This document shows, in pieces, positions 25,351 to 32,168 of a stretch of DNA of 64,000 bases. The notes under the pieces are model-generated. The model searched no databases and was not told the origin of the DNA. It saw only the letters and a list, made by a program, of their open reading frames with translations. This stretch comes from Escherichia coli (GTDB taxonomy: Bacteria; Pseudomonadota; Gammaproteobacteria; Enterobacterales; Enterobacteriaceae), in NCBI RefSeq assembly GCF_048403405.1, contig NZ_CP183129.1; one strand, written 5' to 3'. The first letter of the stretch is position 1, and each line of letters opens with the position of its first letter. Both the position numbers and the translations under genes were made by a program.

Positions 25351-26604
25351 ATGTCAGGATCCAACACTGCAATCAGCCGTCGTCGTTTACTGCAAGGCGC
25401 GGGTGCCATGTGGCTATTGAGCGTAAGTCAGGTCAGTCTGGCTGCGGTCAGCCAGGTCGTGGCGGTGCGCGTCTGGCCTGCGTCCAGCTACACCCGCGTG
25501 ACGGTAGAATCAAATCGTCAGCTGAAATATAAGCAGTTCGCGTTGAGTAACCCGGAACGCGTGGTGGTGGATATCGAAGATGTAAACCTGAACTCGGTAC
25601 TCAAGGGGATGGCGGCACAAATTCGTGCAGACGACCCGTTCATCAAGTCGGCGCGCGTCGGGCAATTTGACCCGCAGACCGTACGCATGGTTTTTGAATT
25701 AAAGCAAAACGTAAAACCGCAGCTGTTTGCCCTTGCGCCGGTCGCTGGGTTTAAAGAGCGTCTGGTGATGGACCTCTATCCGGCCAATGCACAGGATATG
25801 CAGGACCCGCTGCTGGCGCTGCTGGAGGATTACAACAAAGGCGACCTCGAAAAGCAGGTGCCGCCAGCACAAAGTGGTCCACAACCGGGTAAAGCAGGGC
25901 GCGATCGTCCGATTGTCATTATGCTTGACCCTGGCCACGGTGGCGAAGACTCCGGTGCGGTGGGGAAATACAAAACGCGCGAAAAAGACGTGGTATTGCA
26001 AATAGCTCGCCGTCTGCGCTCTCTGATCGAGAAAGAGGGCAATATGAAGGTGTACATGACGCGCAATGAAGACATCTTCATTCCGTTGCAAGTGCGCGTA
26101 GCAAAAGCCCAGAAACAGCGTGCTGACCTGTTTGTCTCTATCCATGCCGACGCCTTTACCAGCCGTCAGCCGAGCGGTTCCTCTGTGTTTGCGCTCTCAA
26201 CCAAAGGTGCAACCAGTACTGCGGCAAAATATCTGGCACAAACCCAGAACGCCTCGGACTTGATTGGTGGCGTGAGCAAAAGCGGTGACCGCTATGTCGA
26301 CCACACCATGTTCGATATGGTGCAGTCGCTGACCATTGCCGACAGCCTGAAGTTTGGTAAAGCGGTGCTGAATAAGCTCGGTAAAATCAACAAGCTGCAT
26401 AAAAATCAGGTTGAACAGGCCGGGTTTGCCGTACTAAAGGCACCAGATATTCCCTCCATTCTGGTCGAAACGGCGTTTATCAGTAACGTTGAGGAAGAGC
26501 GTAAACTGAAAACGGCGACCTTCCAGCAGGAAGTTGCGGAGTCTATTCTTGCGGGGATTAAAGCGTATTTTGCCGATGGGGCGACGCTGGCGAGAAGGGG
26601 ATGA
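25351..26604 (+). CDS. amiC: N-acetylmuramoyl-L-alanine amidase with Tat signal
   Basis: ATG at 25351 gives [19 protein letters not shown] (twin-arginine signal); ORF-track start 25261 is an extension; amidase_3 domain at the C-terminus. Confidence 0.9.
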
Positions 26605-26777
26605 TGTTTTTATTTATTCAATGAATTTATATTTCGTTGAATAGATAACATTTTCATGAATATTAGATGCTGGTTTTGTGACTGATGTCGAATATTTGAA
26701 TGTCGGCTTGAAAAATAAGCCGACCATCTCTTTAATTAAACACAATTCCGTGTAATGTATACACATTAGTTAATCAT

Positions 26778-26850
26778 CTTGTAACTGTTAAATCAGGCAA
26801 GGCAATGTTTGAAGTAATTATTACTTCTGACGTGCCTTGCCTTTTTTTTT
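26778..26850 (+). promoter_or_regulatory. RAT (ribonucleic antiterminator) element overlapping an intrinsic terminator in the leader of the antiterminator gene
   Basis: ttgtaactgttaaatcaggcaagg resembles the sac/bgl/lic RAT consensus; its 3' half (aggcaaggca, 26795-26804) pairs perfectly with tgccttgcct (26833-26842), which is followed by T8. Confidence 0.7.
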
Positions 26851-26861
26851 GGAGTCATGGA

Positions 26862-27686
26862 ATGATCATCGAAAAAGTCATGAACAATAATTGTGTACAG
26901 GCATCGATGAATGGACAGGAGGTTATCATTTCTGGACCTGGCGTCGGTTACAACAAAAAATATGGAATGTCGGTCCCTGAGCATCCGGCTAACCGGATTT
27001 TTTATGTCAGAAATGAACAAAAAAACAAACTCTATAAATTGATTGAACATGTAGATATTGAGTATGTGTTTGTTGCCGAAAAAATAGTGCAATATGCGGA
27101 GAAAAATCTCGAAAAAAATCTCAATCCATCGCTACTATTGATTCTTGCGGATCACATTTCGAATGCAATATCCCGAGTCGCTTCAGGTATACAAATTAAT
27201 AATGTTTTCCTTGATGAAATCAAAGCGTTGTACAAAGCAGAATATGCAATAAGCCGGGATGCATTAACCATCATCAATGAGCAATTTAGCTTTCAACTTC
27301 CGGATGATGAGATTGGTTTTATTGCATTGCATATTTTAAATAACTATGAAAATTCATCTGATTATGAATCGGTACGGATTATTGAATTATCTCAAAAAAT
27401 CACGGAGATTATCGAGGGTATTTATAACCGAAAGGTGGACAGAAGTTCATTTAACTATTCAAGATTTATGATGCACCTTAAGTATTTTTCTAATCGAGTT
27501 TTATGTAATGAAAAGATAAAACAGAAAGATATTGGTGACATCTATGAGCAGTTTCTTGAGAAAGACATCCTGTTACAGCGCGCAATTCATGAAATTGAAA
27601 GGTATCTGTATGCCACTTTTAAATATGAATTAATTTTAGAAGAAAAACTATATCTCTCAATTCGTACCAAAGTATTAATGGACTAA
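26862..27686 (+). CDS. BglG/LicT/SacY-family transcription antiterminator (CAT RNA-binding domain + two PRDs)
   Basis: ATG at 26862 preceded by ggag; N-terminus MIIEKVMNNNCV... aligns to LicT/BglG (MKIAKILNNNVV); the ORF-track start 26805 lies inside the leader terminator. Confidence 0.85.
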   Translation: MIIEKVMNNNCVQASMNGQEVIISGPGVGYNKKYGMSVPEHPANRIFYVRNEQKNKLYKLIEHVDIEYVFVAEKIVQYAEKNLEKNLNPSLLLILADHISNAISRVASGIQINNVFLDEIKALYKAEYAISRDALTIINEQFSFQLPDDEIGFIALHILNNYENSSDYESVRIIELSQKITEIIEGIYNRKVDRSSFNYSRFMMHLKYFSNRVLCNEKIKQKDIGDIYEQFLEKDILLQRAIHEIERYLYATFKYELILEEKLYLSIRTKVLMD

Positions 27687-27717
27687 TTATATATAACATT
27701 TATATGAGATAACCCAC

Positions 27718-29298
27718 ATGAAACAAAAGAAAGCCTGGAGTTTTTTTCAGAGCCTGGGGAAGGCATTTATGTATCCCATTGCTCTGCTAAGTGTATGTGG
27801 CATGATGCTAGGGCTAGGAAGTGGTTTAGCCAGTGATGATATGGCAAAGTTAATTCCATTTCTGGCTATTCCAATAATTAAAACCATACTTGATTTCATT
27901 GTTAGCCTTGGTTTGTTTGCCTTTGTTAATTTACCTGTATTGTTTGCGATAGCAATTCCCTTAGGATTATTAAAAGAGAAAGAGGATAAAGCCTATGGCG
28001 CTTTTTCTGGCTTAATTGGTTTTATGGCGATGCATCTGGGAACGAACTTTTATCTTAAACAGCACGACTTATTGGTCGCTGCTGACCAAATGTCGACACA
28101 TGGGCAAACCATCATTCTGGGGATCCAGTCCTACAATACCAGCGTGTTAGGGGGAATTGTTGCTGGGTTATTAGTCGCCAGCATGTATAAAAAGATCGTT
28201 AATTTACGCATTCCAGAATCATTAGGTTTTTATAGCGGCCCACGTCTGGTGCCTATCATTACACTGATTGTGATGAGTGGATTTGGTCTGATCATTCCTT
28301 TTATCTGGCCGCCGTTTTTCAATCTCTTCATGCTCATTGGCCACTGGATATCAACTTCCGGTCCTGTTGGTTATTTCTTCTATGCAGTTGCCGAACGTGT
28401 GACGATTCCTTTTGGCTTAAACCATCTGGTGACGTCAGTGTTCCGCTTTACGCCAATCGGCGGTTCGGCTGTGATTGGCGGCGAAGAGTATTACGGCACC
28501 CTGAACATGTTTATGGCGTACGTCAAAGAGAATGCGGTCATTCCGCTGGATTTGGCGGGGAAAATGGAGCAGGGCAAACTGATGATTCAGTACGGTCTGG
28601 CTGGTGCTGCACTGGCCATGTATCGCACTGCTCATGCTCAAAACAGAAAGGCTATCAAAGCATTGCTTATTTCCGGTGTGCTTACGGTTATTATTGGTGG
28701 CGTCAGCGAACCGATTGAATTTCTGTTCTTATTTGTCAGTCCGCTGCTGTTTGTCTTCCATGCCTTTATGAATGGATTCGCCAACATGGTCTTGCCATAT
28801 ATGGGCGTGAAGATGGGATTTACTGGCGATCTGATTCAATTTATTAGCTTTGGCGTATTGCGTGGCACAAGAACAGGTTGGCCGATCGCGGTGTGTGTCG
28901 AAGTGGCCTATTTCTTCATTTATTACTTTGTGTTCCGTTGGACCATTCTCAAATTTAACCTGATGACCGTAGGACGTGAAGAGTCCAGTCCTGTCACGCT
29001 GAACGCTCACGAAGAAACTGCAATAGCTAATATCCCAGCTTATGATAAATCAGAGTTGCAGGCAGCGGAGCAAATGGTTAAGGCTCTGGGTGGAAAAGAA
29101 AATATTAAATCACTGGATAATTGTGTCACTCGTTTGCGTTTAACTATCGCAGATATGGGATTGATAGATGAGGCTGCAATTAAAAGTGCCGGAGGGATTG
29201 CGGTTGTGAAACTTGATCAAAATACCTTACAAGTCATTATCGGCACTAAAGTCATCGCCCTGCGTCGGGATATGGATAACTACATGGGGATACGCTGA
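27718..29298 (+). CDS. PTS permease EIICB, glucose/maltose (MalX/PtsG-like) family; no EIIA domain
   Basis: 526-aa polytopic ORF; C-terminal EIIB domain with phospho-cysteine motif NCVTRLRL. Confidence 0.85.
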   Translation: MKQKKAWSFFQSLGKAFMYPIALLSVCGMMLGLGSGLASDDMAKLIPFLAIPIIKTILDFIVSLGLFAFVNLPVLFAIAIPLGLLKEKEDKAYGAFSGLIGFMAMHLGTNFYLKQHDLLVAADQMSTHGQTIILGIQSYNTSVLGGIVAGLLVASMYKKIVNLRIPESLGFYSGPRLVPIITLIVMSGFGLIIPFIWPPFFNLFMLIGHWISTSGPVGYFFYAVAERVTIPFGLNHLVTSVFRFTPIGGSAVIGGEEYYGTLNMFMAYVKENAVIPLDLAGKMEQGKLMIQYGLAGAALAMYRTAHAQNRKAIKALLISGVLTVIIGGVSEPIEFLFLFVSPLLFVFHAFMNGFANMVLPYMGVKMGFTGDLIQFISFGVLRGTRTGWPIAVCVEVAYFFIYYFVFRWTILKFNLMTVGREESSPVTLNAHEETAIANIPAYDKSELQAAEQMVKALGGKENIKSLDNCVTRLRLTIADMGLIDEAAIKSAGGIAVVKLDQNTLQVIIGTKVIALRRDMDNYMGIR

Positions 29299-30482
29299 TG
29301 AATGTTTTTAATACCCCTATCTCCCGTAAAGGAACATATTGCACTCAATGGGACTTTTGTGAGGACAGATTTGGTGTAAAAGATGTATTACCATTTTCTA
29401 TTTCAGATATGGATCTTCCGATACCGGAAGCTATCATCAGGGCATTAAAAAAACGCCTGGAACACCCGATTTTAGGGTACAGCCGTTGGCAGCATGATGA
29501 TTATCTGAATGCGATAGTCAATTGGTATCATCAACAATATAAAACTGAAATAAAACCAGAATGGATCACCTATAGCCCAAGTGTGATGTATTCAATTGCT
29601 AAGGCAATAGAGTTATTAACATTGAATGGAGATAACATTCTCATTTTTACGCCTGTTTATAACGCATTTTTTGATGTAATTAAACAAAGTGGTCGAAATA
29701 TGCTAACAACCTCTTTGAATAAAGAAAATGAGAGAGGCTACGCTATCAACTGGCAAGATTTTGAGCTAAAAATTAAAAGCGCGAAGATGGTGTTATTGTG
29801 TAATCCTCATAACCCGACAGGAACCGTCTGGTCGGAAGAAGATCTCTTCAAAATCGCTGCAAGCTGCGCAAAACAAAAAATCTGGCTATGTTCAGATGAA
29901 ATTCACAGTGATTTTGTTTTTAACCATGGTTTCACGTCCGCGTTAAAAATAAAAAATGACAAAGTAGTGGTGTTAAATTCGATTTCGAAAACATTTAATG
30001 TTCCTGCACTAACAGGATCATATATGATATCCGCTGACCAGGATTTTAATGATAAGTTTAGAACGATATCAAGATATCGCGATTTTGTAAACTCACCATC
30101 TATATTGAATGTGATTGCTACCATTGTTGCTTATAACGAATGTGAAGAATGGTTAAAGTCGTTAAAGGATCATATTGCCTCTAACATTCAATTTACCCAG
30201 CAGTATTTGAATGAAAATATTCCAGAATTGATCGTGAGGTCCGCTGAGGGTTGCTATTTTTCGTGGATAGATTGCTCGGCCATTGGCTATCCCTTTGATA
30301 AATTTTACCGACGATTAATTGATGAAGGGAAAGTGGGTATTATGGCGGGGTATGTTTATGGTACGGAAGGTGAGGGCTATCTGCGTCTGAATCTGGCCTG
30401 CGGTCGAGAAAAATTATATATGGGGCTTGTGCGCCTTGCGAGTGTAATTAAAAATATTAATCAGGAAAAAGAAAATGAATAA
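29298..30482 (+). CDS. MalY/PatB-like PLP-dependent C-S lyase (aminotransferase class I/II fold)
   Basis: 394 aa; N-terminus GTYCTQWDF...DVLPFSISDMD closely parallels MalY; PLP-lysine motif SISKTFN; start overlaps the PTS stop. Confidence 0.8.
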   Translation: MNVFNTPISRKGTYCTQWDFCEDRFGVKDVLPFSISDMDLPIPEAIIRALKKRLEHPILGYSRWQHDDYLNAIVNWYHQQYKTEIKPEWITYSPSVMYSIAKAIELLTLNGDNILIFTPVYNAFFDVIKQSGRNMLTTSLNKENERGYAINWQDFELKIKSAKMVLLCNPHNPTGTVWSEEDLFKIAASCAKQKIWLCSDEIHSDFVFNHGFTSALKIKNDKVVVLNSISKTFNVPALTGSYMISADQDFNDKFRTISRYRDFVNSPSILNVIATIVAYNECEEWLKSLKDHIASNIQFTQQYLNENIPELIVRSAEGCYFSWIDCSAIGYPFDKFYRRLIDEGKVGIMAGYVYGTEGEGYLRLNLACGREKLYMGLVRLASVIKNINQEKENE

Positions 30483-31071
30483 CTCGGAACTTATACATCT
30501 TATTAAACATTTTATGCGTAACGAACATAAGGCCGTTGAAGAGGTTATTGATTCCCCACTTTCTGAAGTCGCTAATTTAATTAAAGTATTACAATCTTGT
30601 CAGGGTAAAGTTGTTTTTATTGGTGTTGGTAAGTCCGGTATTATTGCCAGAAAACTCGCAGCAACATTTGCCAGTACCGGAACTCCCTCGTTTTTTGTTC
30701 ACGGTACGGAAGCGGTACACGGCGACCTTGGAATGGTGGCGAAAGACGATGTTGTTATTCTTATTTCAAACAGTGGTGAGACGGCGGAAATCCTGGCGAC
30801 ACTGCCTAGTCTGAAAAGAATGGGTAATTATTTGATCTCTTTTACCCGCAGTCATCACTCATCGCTTGCGATAAGTTGTGATTTATCTGTTGAAATCCCC
30901 GTCAAAAGTGAGGCGGATAATTTAGGTTTAGCACCGTCATGCTCGTCTACTGTTGTTCTGGTTGTTGGTGATGCGGTGGCGCTTGCACTCTCCGAATTGA
31001 AAAAATTTACTCGTGCCGATTTCGGCTTATATCATCCAGGAGGTGCACTCGGCATTAAAGCAAATTCATAA
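30475..31071 (+). CDS. SIS-domain-only sugar-phosphate isomerase-like protein (resembles the N-terminal half of KdsD/GutQ arabinose-5-phosphate isomerases, no CBS domains)
   Basis: 198 aa; motifs GVGKSGIIARKLAATFASTGTPSFFVHGTEAVHGDLGM, SNSGET and HPGGALG; start overlaps the MalY-like stop by 8 nt. Confidence 0.8.
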   Translation: MNNSELIHLIKHFMRNEHKAVEEVIDSPLSEVANLIKVLQSCQGKVVFIGVGKSGIIARKLAATFASTGTPSFFVHGTEAVHGDLGMVAKDDVVILISNSGETAEILATLPSLKRMGNYLISFTRSHHSSLAISCDLSVEIPVKSEADNLGLAPSCSSTVVLVVGDAVALALSELKKFTRADFGLYHPGGALGIKANS

Positions 31072-31142: not shown

Positions 31143-32090
31143 ATGAAAAATGTTCTGGTCACCGTCCCCAGCTTTTCAGCACGCTGTGTTTCCGCCAGCA
31201 AGTTGCTAAGAGAGAATAATTTTAATCTTATTATTAAGAATAATGTGGAGCATCTGCTTAAATCAGAATCCACTGCATTACGAGAATCTATTTGCGCGGT
31301 CATCGCCGGAAAAGATTGTTATCAGGCGGATACGCTATCATTGCTGCCTGGTGTGAAAATAATATCGAGATTCGGGACGGGGATAGACAATATTGATCTT
31401 CGTGCGGCACAGCAATCCGGTATTGTAGTCAAAAATGCGGTTGGGATTAATTCAAATGCGGTTGCGGAATTTATCATTGGACTTATCTTTGCGAGCATGA
31501 GAAATATTCCTGGCAGCTATCATGCGATGCAAAATGGCTACTGGGTTGAGTCGCATGGCTGTGAATTACAAGGGAAACGGATTGGCCTGGTTGGCTACGG
31601 TAATATAGGTAAAACCCTGGCGAAAAGGTTGTCTGGTTTTGATGTTGAGCTTTTAGCTTTTGACAAACAACCCGATTTTCAGGCCGCTGGCAAAGATGGA
31701 GTTCAGTTTGTATCAATTGAAGATATCTTTATGCAGTCGCATGTCATCATTGTTCTTTTACCTTTTTCTCCTGAGCTGGAGAACTTCATTAGTCATAAAT
31801 ATTTGTCAATGATGCGCAATGGTGCTCTGATCATCAATGCCGCAAGGGGAAAGTTGCTGGATGAGGGCGCTTTACTTCAGGTGATTGAAGAACGAAATGT
31901 GTTTGCGGCGCTGGATGTGTTTAGCTCTGAACCGTTGGCGCAATTTAGCCCACTGCTACATGCCAAAAATATCATTACAACGCCGCATATTGCGGCCGCC
32001 ACCGTTGAGTCATACCAGCAAACCGGGATACACGTTGCCCAGTCAATAATTGATTACTTCGCAGGAAGGGAGATAAAAAACGTGTTGTGA
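31143..32090 (+). CDS. D-isomer-specific 2-hydroxyacid dehydrogenase, NAD-binding
   Basis: ATG at 31143 preceded by gaagtgag (ORF-track 31134 is a GTG upstream); Rossmann motif GLVGYGNIGKTLAKRL. Confidence 0.8.
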   Translation: MKNVLVTVPSFSARCVSASKLLRENNFNLIIKNNVEHLLKSESTALRESICAVIAGKDCYQADTLSLLPGVKIISRFGTGIDNIDLRAAQQSGIVVKNAVGINSNAVAEFIIGLIFASMRNIPGSYHAMQNGYWVESHGCELQGKRIGLVGYGNIGKTLAKRLSGFDVELLAFDKQPDFQAAGKDGVQFVSIEDIFMQSHVIIVLLPFSPELENFISHKYLSMMRNGALIINAARGKLLDEGALLQVIEERNVFAALDVFSSEPLAQFSPLLHAKNIITTPHIAAATVESYQQTGIHVAQSIIDYFAGREIKNVL

Positions 32091-32116
32091 GTTCAGCGAA
32101 CGAAGATTTTAAATAC

Positions 32117-32149
32117 AAAAAAACCGCAATTTGTGGAACACATTGCGGT
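32117..32149 (-). terminator. intrinsic terminator downstream of the tRNA-fMet operon (minus strand)
   Basis: On the minus strand, stem ccgcaat/attgcgg followed by T7; lies just 3' of the last tRNA copy. Confidence 0.55.
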
Positions 32150-32168
32150 TTATCAGCATTCTAAGTAT

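Follow-up and report, generated by a model that had tools for sequence, protein, structure and literature searches.

A predicted RAT-terminator leader ahead of the antiterminator gene of the Escherichia coli paf operon

We analyzed a 64-kb stretch of Escherichia coli DNA (the window), in which a block of five genes lies between amiC and the metZWV tRNAs. The block is preceded by recD, argA, and amiC and followed by metZWV, mltA, and tcdA, and its five genes have a G+C content of 32-45%, compared to approximately 52% in these flanks. The genes, together with the spacer that separates the first two, are as follows:

26862..27686, + strand, BglG/SacY-family antiterminator (CAT-PRD-PRD), 274 aa; assigned by Pfam, with the PGAP start
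27687..27717, + strand, spacer of 31 nt between the antiterminator gene and the PTS gene; no RAT, no terminator
27718..29298, + strand, probable PafP, a MalX-like PTS EIICB (glucose/maltose family); TIGR02004 score 540 bits, under the cut-off
29298..30482, + strand, MalY/PatB-family PLP enzyme; TIGR04350 363.7 bits, above cut-off, and so named by PGAP
30475..31071, + strand, short KpsF/GutQ-type SIS sugar-phosphate isomerase, 198 aa; profile match and PGAP
31143..32090, + strand, D-2-hydroxyacid / phosphoglycerate dehydrogenase family enzyme, ending the operon; profile match and PGAP start

This five-gene module is present in 1683 of the 5426 complete E. coli genomes that we searched (~31%). 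It stands in place of the entire K-12 amiC-metV intergenic region, amiC terminator included, with one junction directly 3' of the amiC stop codon (26604/26605) and the other at 32100-32168. Downstream of the last gene, a hairpin (ACCGCAAT...ATTGCGGT, 32123-32149) carries an A7 run on its left, which on the minus strand makes it a T-run terminator for the metZWV tRNA operon. This hairpin, which has an 11-nt loop and was therefore missed by our terminator scan, may also end the five-gene operon.

We compared the product of the first gene with protein family profiles and found that it has the domains expected of the BglG-like protein named in the first-pass annotation, namely CAT_RBD at residues 1-55 (2.8e-14), a PRD at 73-160 (1.8e-23), and a weak second PRD at 178-251 (i-E 0.0024). 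Its scores against the NCBIfam models for LicT (230.2 bits; NF046042, cut-off 300) and GlcT (183 bits) are both below the equivalog cut-offs, and, judged by these profiles, it is a member of the family and not a LicT ortholog. His98, His157, and His205 are invariant when the protein is aligned with K-12 BglG and clostridial LicT-like proteins. The fourth PRD histidine position (residue 267, 27660-27668), which we take to be LicT His269, is Arg in E. coli, Citrobacter, and Atlantibacter and Asn in K-12 BglG, and the histidine is retained in the clostridial LicT-like proteins and in the most distant group of orthologs described below. The EIICB encoded by the second gene is presumed to be the sugar sensor that controls the antiterminator. 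Within the antiterminator gene we also considered a hairpin at 26983-26998 (ATCCGG-CTAA-CCGGAT, with TTTTT to 27003), which is unconserved even among Escherichia lineages and is probably a chance occurrence.

A module of this kind is already known from the UPEC strain CFT073, where five genes of the identical kind lie beside amiC at the end of the metV island and the antiterminator is 97% identical to that of the window. The two loci differ in that the CFT073 operon is separated from the tRNAs by a type VI secretion cluster, whereas the operon of the window abuts metZWV directly. The CFT073 block c3405-c3410 has been described as a "PTS system, maltose/glucose specific" (PMC2831201), which fits the operon that we observe. 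In addition, pafR, a regulator of the CFT073 metV island, has been called an antiterminator, and both pafR and pafP are needed for mouse urinary-tract infection, with expression that is apparently in vivo only (PMC8882828; PMC9981650; PMC4468546). Based on these correspondences, the antiterminator and PTS genes of the window appear to be pafR and pafP, and we refer to the five genes as the paf operon. In Baum et al. 2014, PafR is said to be capable of antitermination, and its targets were reportedly given there as unknown. Full-text searches of openly available papers returned none describing the paf leader, which may already have been described in the PafR paper.

The region directly upstream of pafR, under which no feature is annotated, contains a compact set of elements:

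26778..26801, + strand, RAT hairpin CUUG-UAA-CUG-UUAAAU-CAG-G-CAAG, with pairs 26778-81/26798-801 and 26785-87/26794-96
26795..26842, + strand, terminator hairpin, the 5' arm of which has 26795-26801 in common with the RAT 3' strand; identified by its fold and by ortholog architecture
26843..26850, + strand, terminator U-tract, 8 U after the stem; a T7-T10 run in all orthologs
26851..26854, + strand, Shine-Dalgarno GGAG, 7 nt before the start codon; conserved

The first-pass annotation had described this leader as a RAT-like sequence overlapping the 5' arm of a perfect 10-bp stem, with a palindromic 28-nt loop inside the stem, a run of eight Ts after it, and a good ribosome binding site ahead of an ATG at 26862, and we could place each of these elements exactly. 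Read directly from the sequence, the two arms of the outer stem, 26795-26804 (AGGCAAGGCA) and 26833-26842 (TGCCTTGCCT), are exact reverse complements of each other, and the RAT overlaps the 5' arm over 26795-26801. The T-run that begins within the stem comprises nine Ts in the DNA (26842-26850), eight of them 3' of the stem. The 28 nt inside the stem carry the palindrome GAAGTAAT (26811-26818) / ATTACTTC (26820-26827), which RNAfold draws as an extension of the outer stem, so that the two form one hairpin of 10 + 4 + 7 bp with a 3-nt loop. This hairpin has a predicted energy of about -28 to -29.6 kcal/mol (MFE -29.6; z = -5.0), and none of 200 shuffled sequences folded as stably; it was missed by our terminator scan, which has a loop limit of 8 nt. 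The GGAG lies 7 nt 5' of the ATG at 26862, which is also the start used by PGAP. A longer antiterminator reading frame from an ATG at 26805, which would add 19 residues encoded inside the terminator, was rejected, as it has no ribosome binding site, is unconserved, and differs from the PGAP start. We also observed a mini-ORF, ATG GAA TGA (26857-26865), that overlaps the antiterminator start codon in an ATGA arrangement; its counterpart in E. whittamii, Citrobacter, and Atlantibacter reads ATG AAA TGA, and the distant group lacks it.

The RAT-like core, TTGTAACTG-N6-CAGGCAA at 26779-26800, is the sole match to this pattern on either strand of the 64-kb window, and no match was found in 100 shuffled sequences. 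Strict and loose patterns, as well as a fuzzy scan that allowed up to 6-8 substitutions and used the paf RAT and both bgl RATs as queries, revealed no second RAT in the window. Across the complete genomes, a search with a 122-nt leader sequence, which is blind to diverged RATs, found it in 1688 of 5426, and it is single-copy in all but one of the carriers, the exception having a second copy on a plasmid. CFT073 has the same RAT and terminator as the window but for one apical base. An Rfam E-value search of 26000-28500 returned six chance matches, to miRNA and snoRNA models, and none to RAT or antiterminator families.

We assessed how the two overlapping hairpins relate by folding the leader with and without the RAT constrained, and they proved to be mutually exclusive structures. 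At equilibrium the terminator dominates, with pair probabilities of 0.95-1.0 for the terminator and below 0.004 for the RAT. RNA that extends only to 26832 folds as the RAT plus the inner hairpin, and the RAT should therefore exist before transcription reaches the terminator's 3' arm. When the RAT was enforced and its bases were withheld from other pairing, at a cost of 12.3 kcal/mol, the best remaining structure ended at 26835 and left CUUGCC unpaired before the U-tract; in this model, the RAT-enforced leader is predicted to be no longer an intrinsic terminator. The RAT alone has a predicted energy of -6.3 kcal/mol versus -7.2 for the bgl RAT, and both adopt two stems separated by an asymmetric internal loop in which UAA faces G.

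Homologues of the antiterminator fall into three groups: one in Escherichia (92-99% identical), one in Citrobacter, Atlantibacter, and metagenomes (78-81%), and a distant group made up of Enterobacter sp. ENT03 and metagenomes (42-44%). Beyond these groups, the nearest proteins are clostridial and LicT-like, with 32-37% identity. On the ortholog contigs the gene order of antiterminator, EIICB, aminotransferase, and SIS is kept, and the permeases contain Pfam PTS_EIIC and PTS_EIIB. The neighbors differ in Enterobacter sp. ENT03, which has an AP-endonuclease-family gene upstream and fruBKA-like genes downstream. The dehydrogenase gene is variable, occurring as two fragments in one Atlantibacter-type contig (L002 11225-13002), uncalled in another (L003 7237-8184), and absent from the distant loci (L004, L005), and we therefore regard the antiterminator, EIICB, MalY-like, and SIS genes as the conserved core.

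In every orthologous locus that we examined, the antiterminator gene is preceded by a RAT and by a hairpin with a T7-T10 run, the end of which lies 8-11 nt 5' of the start codon. Over twelve leaders (those of E. coli, E. whittamii, Citrobacter, Atlantibacter, Enterobacter sp. ENT03, and metagenomes), the 24-nt RAT varies very little, while the sequence 5' of it is unalignable between the two main leader groups. Its pairing is intact in 98% of cells (9 sequences), compared to 17-65% when the partner strand is slid by 1-3 columns. The single change in the RAT stem, found in the distant group, is a compensatory replacement of a G-C by an A-U pair in the upper stem (G26787A/C26794T in window coordinates), and it probably represents one evolutionary event. 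Covariation in the RAT is thus thin, and most of the support for this hairpin appears to come from its conservation and its resemblance to bgl. A further metagenome match to the RAT pattern (L026, Ga0075154_10190121) lacks a terminator, carries mismatches in its upper stem, and lies in unrelated AT-rich sequence, and it is probably a chance match, about one of which is expected in a search with 20 specified bases.

The terminator stems vary in sequence and keep their architecture, with ortholog energies of -23 to -28 kcal/mol, and RNAalifold identified four terminator pairs that are changed on both sides. For example, Citrobacter and Atlantibacter have GACA/TGTC in place of GGCA/TGCC, the Atlantibacter stem is a perfect 19 bp, and the stem of the distant group is unrelated (GGGCAATAC/GTATTGCCC). 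The terminator arm in the ortholog MFE structures starts 2-4 nt later, so the overlap with the RAT looks shorter there than the 26795-26801 of the window. A constant binding hairpin beside a freely co-varying terminator is the appearance that would be expected of a protein-dependent antitermination leader.

Together, these findings suggest how the leader might operate. Transcription would start somewhere in 26605-26775, and the 24-nt RAT hairpin would form first in the emerging RNA. With no protein bound, the 3' arm at 26833-42 would displace the RAT 3' strand to give the terminator hairpin followed by U8, and polymerase would stop 11 nt before the start codon, such that none of the five genes is made. 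By analogy with BglG, LicT, and GlcT, the presence of the transported sugar would cause the EIICB permease to stop phosphorylating PRD1 of the antiterminator (His98/His157), and the antiterminator would dimerize and clamp the RAT with its CAT domain. In RNA with its RAT so bound, 26795-26801 would be withheld from the terminator and only the inner hairpin, ending 6-7 nt before the U-tract, could form. Polymerase would then read through into the antiterminator gene and across the 31-nt spacer into the permease and enzyme genes. In the absence of the sugar, EIICB would phosphorylate and silence the antiterminator. EIIA would have to be supplied from elsewhere, since no EIIA gene is encoded in the five-gene operon.

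The position of the leader also has consequences for the genes behind it. The U-tract ends 11 nt before the ATG, which leaves no room for a promoter, and the antiterminator would consequently be transcribed through its own terminator. The first-pass annotation had noted a gap of only 31 bp between the antiterminator and PTS genes and had read the operon as being gated by a single leader, unlike the two-terminator layout of bgl. Both points agree with our results: the gap (27687-27717) is AT-rich and contains neither a hairpin nor a RAT, the window holds no second RAT, and K-12 bgl does have both of its RAT-terminators. Because the spacer before the permease gene measures 25-31 nt in every ortholog, one switch would serve all of the genes, and the RAT-terminator leader probably gates all five. 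With the antiterminator behind its own terminator and no second terminator present, the circuit would be positively autoregulated and primed by leakage, and the whole operon would be switched as a unit. We consider it very likely that the leader is the cis-regulatory BglG/SacY-type antitermination switch of the E. coli paf operon and works by the canonical mechanism, of which we infer termination, RAT binding by the antiterminator, phosphorylation control, and the identity of the inducer.

One alternative is that the RAT is real but serves in the cell chiefly as the target of a different host protein of the BglG family (BglG or AscG-independent cross-talk), in which case the operon would not be truly autoregulated. 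We examined the specificity of the RAT using the experimentally defined K-12 bgl leaders as references, these being t1 (GGATTGTTACTGCATTCGCAGGCAAAACC plus terminator), which lies before bglG, and t2 (GGATTGTTACCGCACTAAGCGGGCAAAACC plus terminator), which lies between bglG and bglF. The paf RAT is an imperfect hairpin with conserved UUGUNACUG...CAGGCAA, an asymmetric internal loop, and the 6-nt spacing of bgl t1, to which it aligns without gaps over TTGT(A/T)ACTG, six apical bases, and CAGGCAA. The two have 15 of the 16 specified core bases (TTGTTACTG + CAGGCAA) and the spacing in common, and cross-talk between RAT systems has been documented in B. subtilis (PMC1635312), both of which would favor an outside reader. 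The one differing base, a U8-to-A variant (TTGTAAC), also occurs in the RATs of Staphylococcus and of a Clostridium tertium locus.

The lower part of the hairpin, however, distinguishes the paf RAT from known targets. In bgl and LicT targets the lower loop has A3 opposite A26/A27, whereas the paf RAT has a C-G pair between positions 3 and 26 (CUUG/CAAG). Among the B. subtilis antiterminators, specificity is known to depend on position 26 and on the lower loop, LicT needing a purine/A26 loop (PMC1635312), so the LicT-type requirement (A26, purine at 3) is replaced by a base pair here. Because of this difference from LicT and BglG targets, binding of the paf RAT by a BglG-family CAT domain is probable and not certain, and the paf RAT probably constitutes its own specificity class. 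Moreover, the paf RAT occurs together with the paf antiterminator in every ortholog, including genera that were fetched independently, and bgl is H-NS-silenced in E. coli (PMC2646131). Taking both sides together, we consider it quite improbable that an outside protein is the main reader of the paf RAT.

A second alternative is that the main effect of the long 5' hairpin is on the stability or translation of the mRNA and not on transcription termination. BglG has been reported to stabilize the 5' end of bgl mRNA (PMC12591593), and the paf ribosome binding site lies directly 3' of the U-run. This site is nevertheless unsequestered in both the terminator fold and the RAT fold, and a GC-rich stem base followed by U8-U9, which is the defining anatomy of an intrinsic terminator, is found in all orthologs despite the changes in stem sequence; the conserved U-tract would be left unexplained by a role in stability or translation alone. 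We give this possibility slightly less weight than cross-talk. Least probable of all is that the hairpin and U-run are only an amiC terminator or an island-border insulator, with a coincidental RAT likeness and paf genes that are otherwise controlled: although the island starts directly after the amiC stop codon in place of the K-12 amiC terminator, and the leader terminator is the first strong one 3' of amiC (the other hairpin, at 26702-26724, has a poor T-run), a RAT and terminator of identical type precede the antiterminator gene in L005, with an AP-endonuclease-family gene in place of amiC, and in L012, where the upstream gene is likewise not amiC, the leader element is present in Atlantibacter though amiC there has its own strong terminator, and the RAT core is absent from the 100 shuffles and stays nearly invariant in distant orthologs. 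The leader terminator may additionally serve amiC, which is compatible with an antitermination switch.

Upstream of the RAT we found one conserved candidate region:

26750..26766, + strand, conserved block GTGTAnnGTATAnnCAT; invariant columns across Escherichia, Citrobacter, and Atlantibacter leaders

This block sits 12-28 nt 5' of the RAT and includes the palindrome TGTATACA in the window strain. Its role may be that of a promoter -10 region (TATAnn at 26758-26763, with no recognizable -35) or of an operator. A consensus promoter scan of the region upstream of the RAT found no promoter on the + strand. Two further candidates, a CRP-like site (TGTGA-N6-TCGAA, 26677-26692) and a promoter (TTGAAA-17-TTTAAT, 26710-26738), were set aside, both being poorly conserved in Citrobacter and Atlantibacter. 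Farther upstream, 26605-26725 folds into three hairpins, at ~26612-26648 (AT-rich, ~16 bp), ~26658-26697, and 26702-26724 (GTCGGCTT/AAGCCGAC), the last of which shows compensatory changes within Escherichia. The fold of 26596-26775 has a z-score of -4.9, and the hairpins at 26605-26725 may represent either a weak terminator of amiC or what is left of an island end.

Since insertion of the island removed amiC's own terminator in E. coli, transcripts could also arrive from upstream. This raises the rather speculative idea, to which we give a low though not negligible probability, that the leader is a direct and perhaps the only antitermination target of PafR, that most transcripts of the operon come by read-through from the constitutive amiC promoter, with the RAT-terminator as the sole gate, and that positive feedback makes the arrangement an all-or-none switch. 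If true, this would account both for the fact that no dedicated paf promoter activity was seen in vitro and for the apparent in vivo-only expression.

The operon is enriched in extraintestinal pathogenic E. coli, and in the cited literature its regulator and permease, though required for full mouse urinary-tract virulence, are silent in the laboratory. The RAT-terminator offers a concrete explanation of this silence, in that a regulator encoded behind a strong terminator would be off until its sugar appears. A leader-reporter fusion would provide a handle with which to screen for the inducing sugar, and removal of the terminator 3' arm should activate the operon. With respect to mechanism, the leader contributes nothing beyond existing knowledge of BglG-family antitermination.

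Among characterized systems, bgl resembles paf in encoding a CAT-PRD-PRD antiterminator first, in using a PTS permease as sensor, and in having a RAT that overlaps an intrinsic terminator before the antiterminator gene. It differs in its second RAT-terminator between bglG and bglF, where paf has a 31-nt spacer, and in its permease, as BglF is an EIIBCA of the beta-glucoside family and the paf permease is a Glc/Mal-family EIICB without EIIA. Loci of the glcT-ptsG type (B. subtilis; Staphylococcus L015-L018, L022) also pair a BglG-family antiterminator with a PTS permease, and the Staphylococcus RAT GGGGTTGTAACTTTAAGTAGGCAAAACCC has the TTGTAAC...AGGCAA variant of paf. In these loci, however, the RAT-terminator follows the antiterminator gene and has a separate promoter, so the regulator is not behind its own terminator. 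In Staphylococcus nepalensis (L016 6830-7000; likewise L015, L017, L018, and L022), for instance, a clear promoter (TTGACA-N18-TATACT), the RAT, and a terminator lie between the antiterminator gene and a 676-aa ORF, which is presumably the PTS permease. C. tertium has RAT-terminators on both sides of the regulator gene, and a Clostridia-type locus (L036) is like paf in having a leader hairpin with a U-tract and a gap of 45 nt to the PTS gene.

Closer matches in layout exist. In E. faecalis nagY-nagE, a single RAT-terminator lies before the regulator gene, and RNA binding and autoregulation have been demonstrated (PMC9981650). As in paf, the antiterminator gene comes first, the PTS permease gene second, and the only RAT-terminator is in the 5' UTR, but the host is Gram-positive, the RAT consensus is another one, the permease is an N-acetylglucosamine EIICBA, and there is a second target, hylA, elsewhere in the genome. 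In Lactobacillus casei lacTEGF, too, a single RAT leader precedes an operon that encodes its own antiterminator. The same holds for sacXY, in which the antiterminator is encoded in an operon behind one RAT leader (PMC9981650, PMC12591593). Both lacTEGF and B. subtilis sacXY differ from paf in their sugars and hosts, and in sacXY the permease gene comes first. We conclude that the single-leader, antiterminator-first layout of paf, while unlike that of bgl, is a known variant and not an unusual one.
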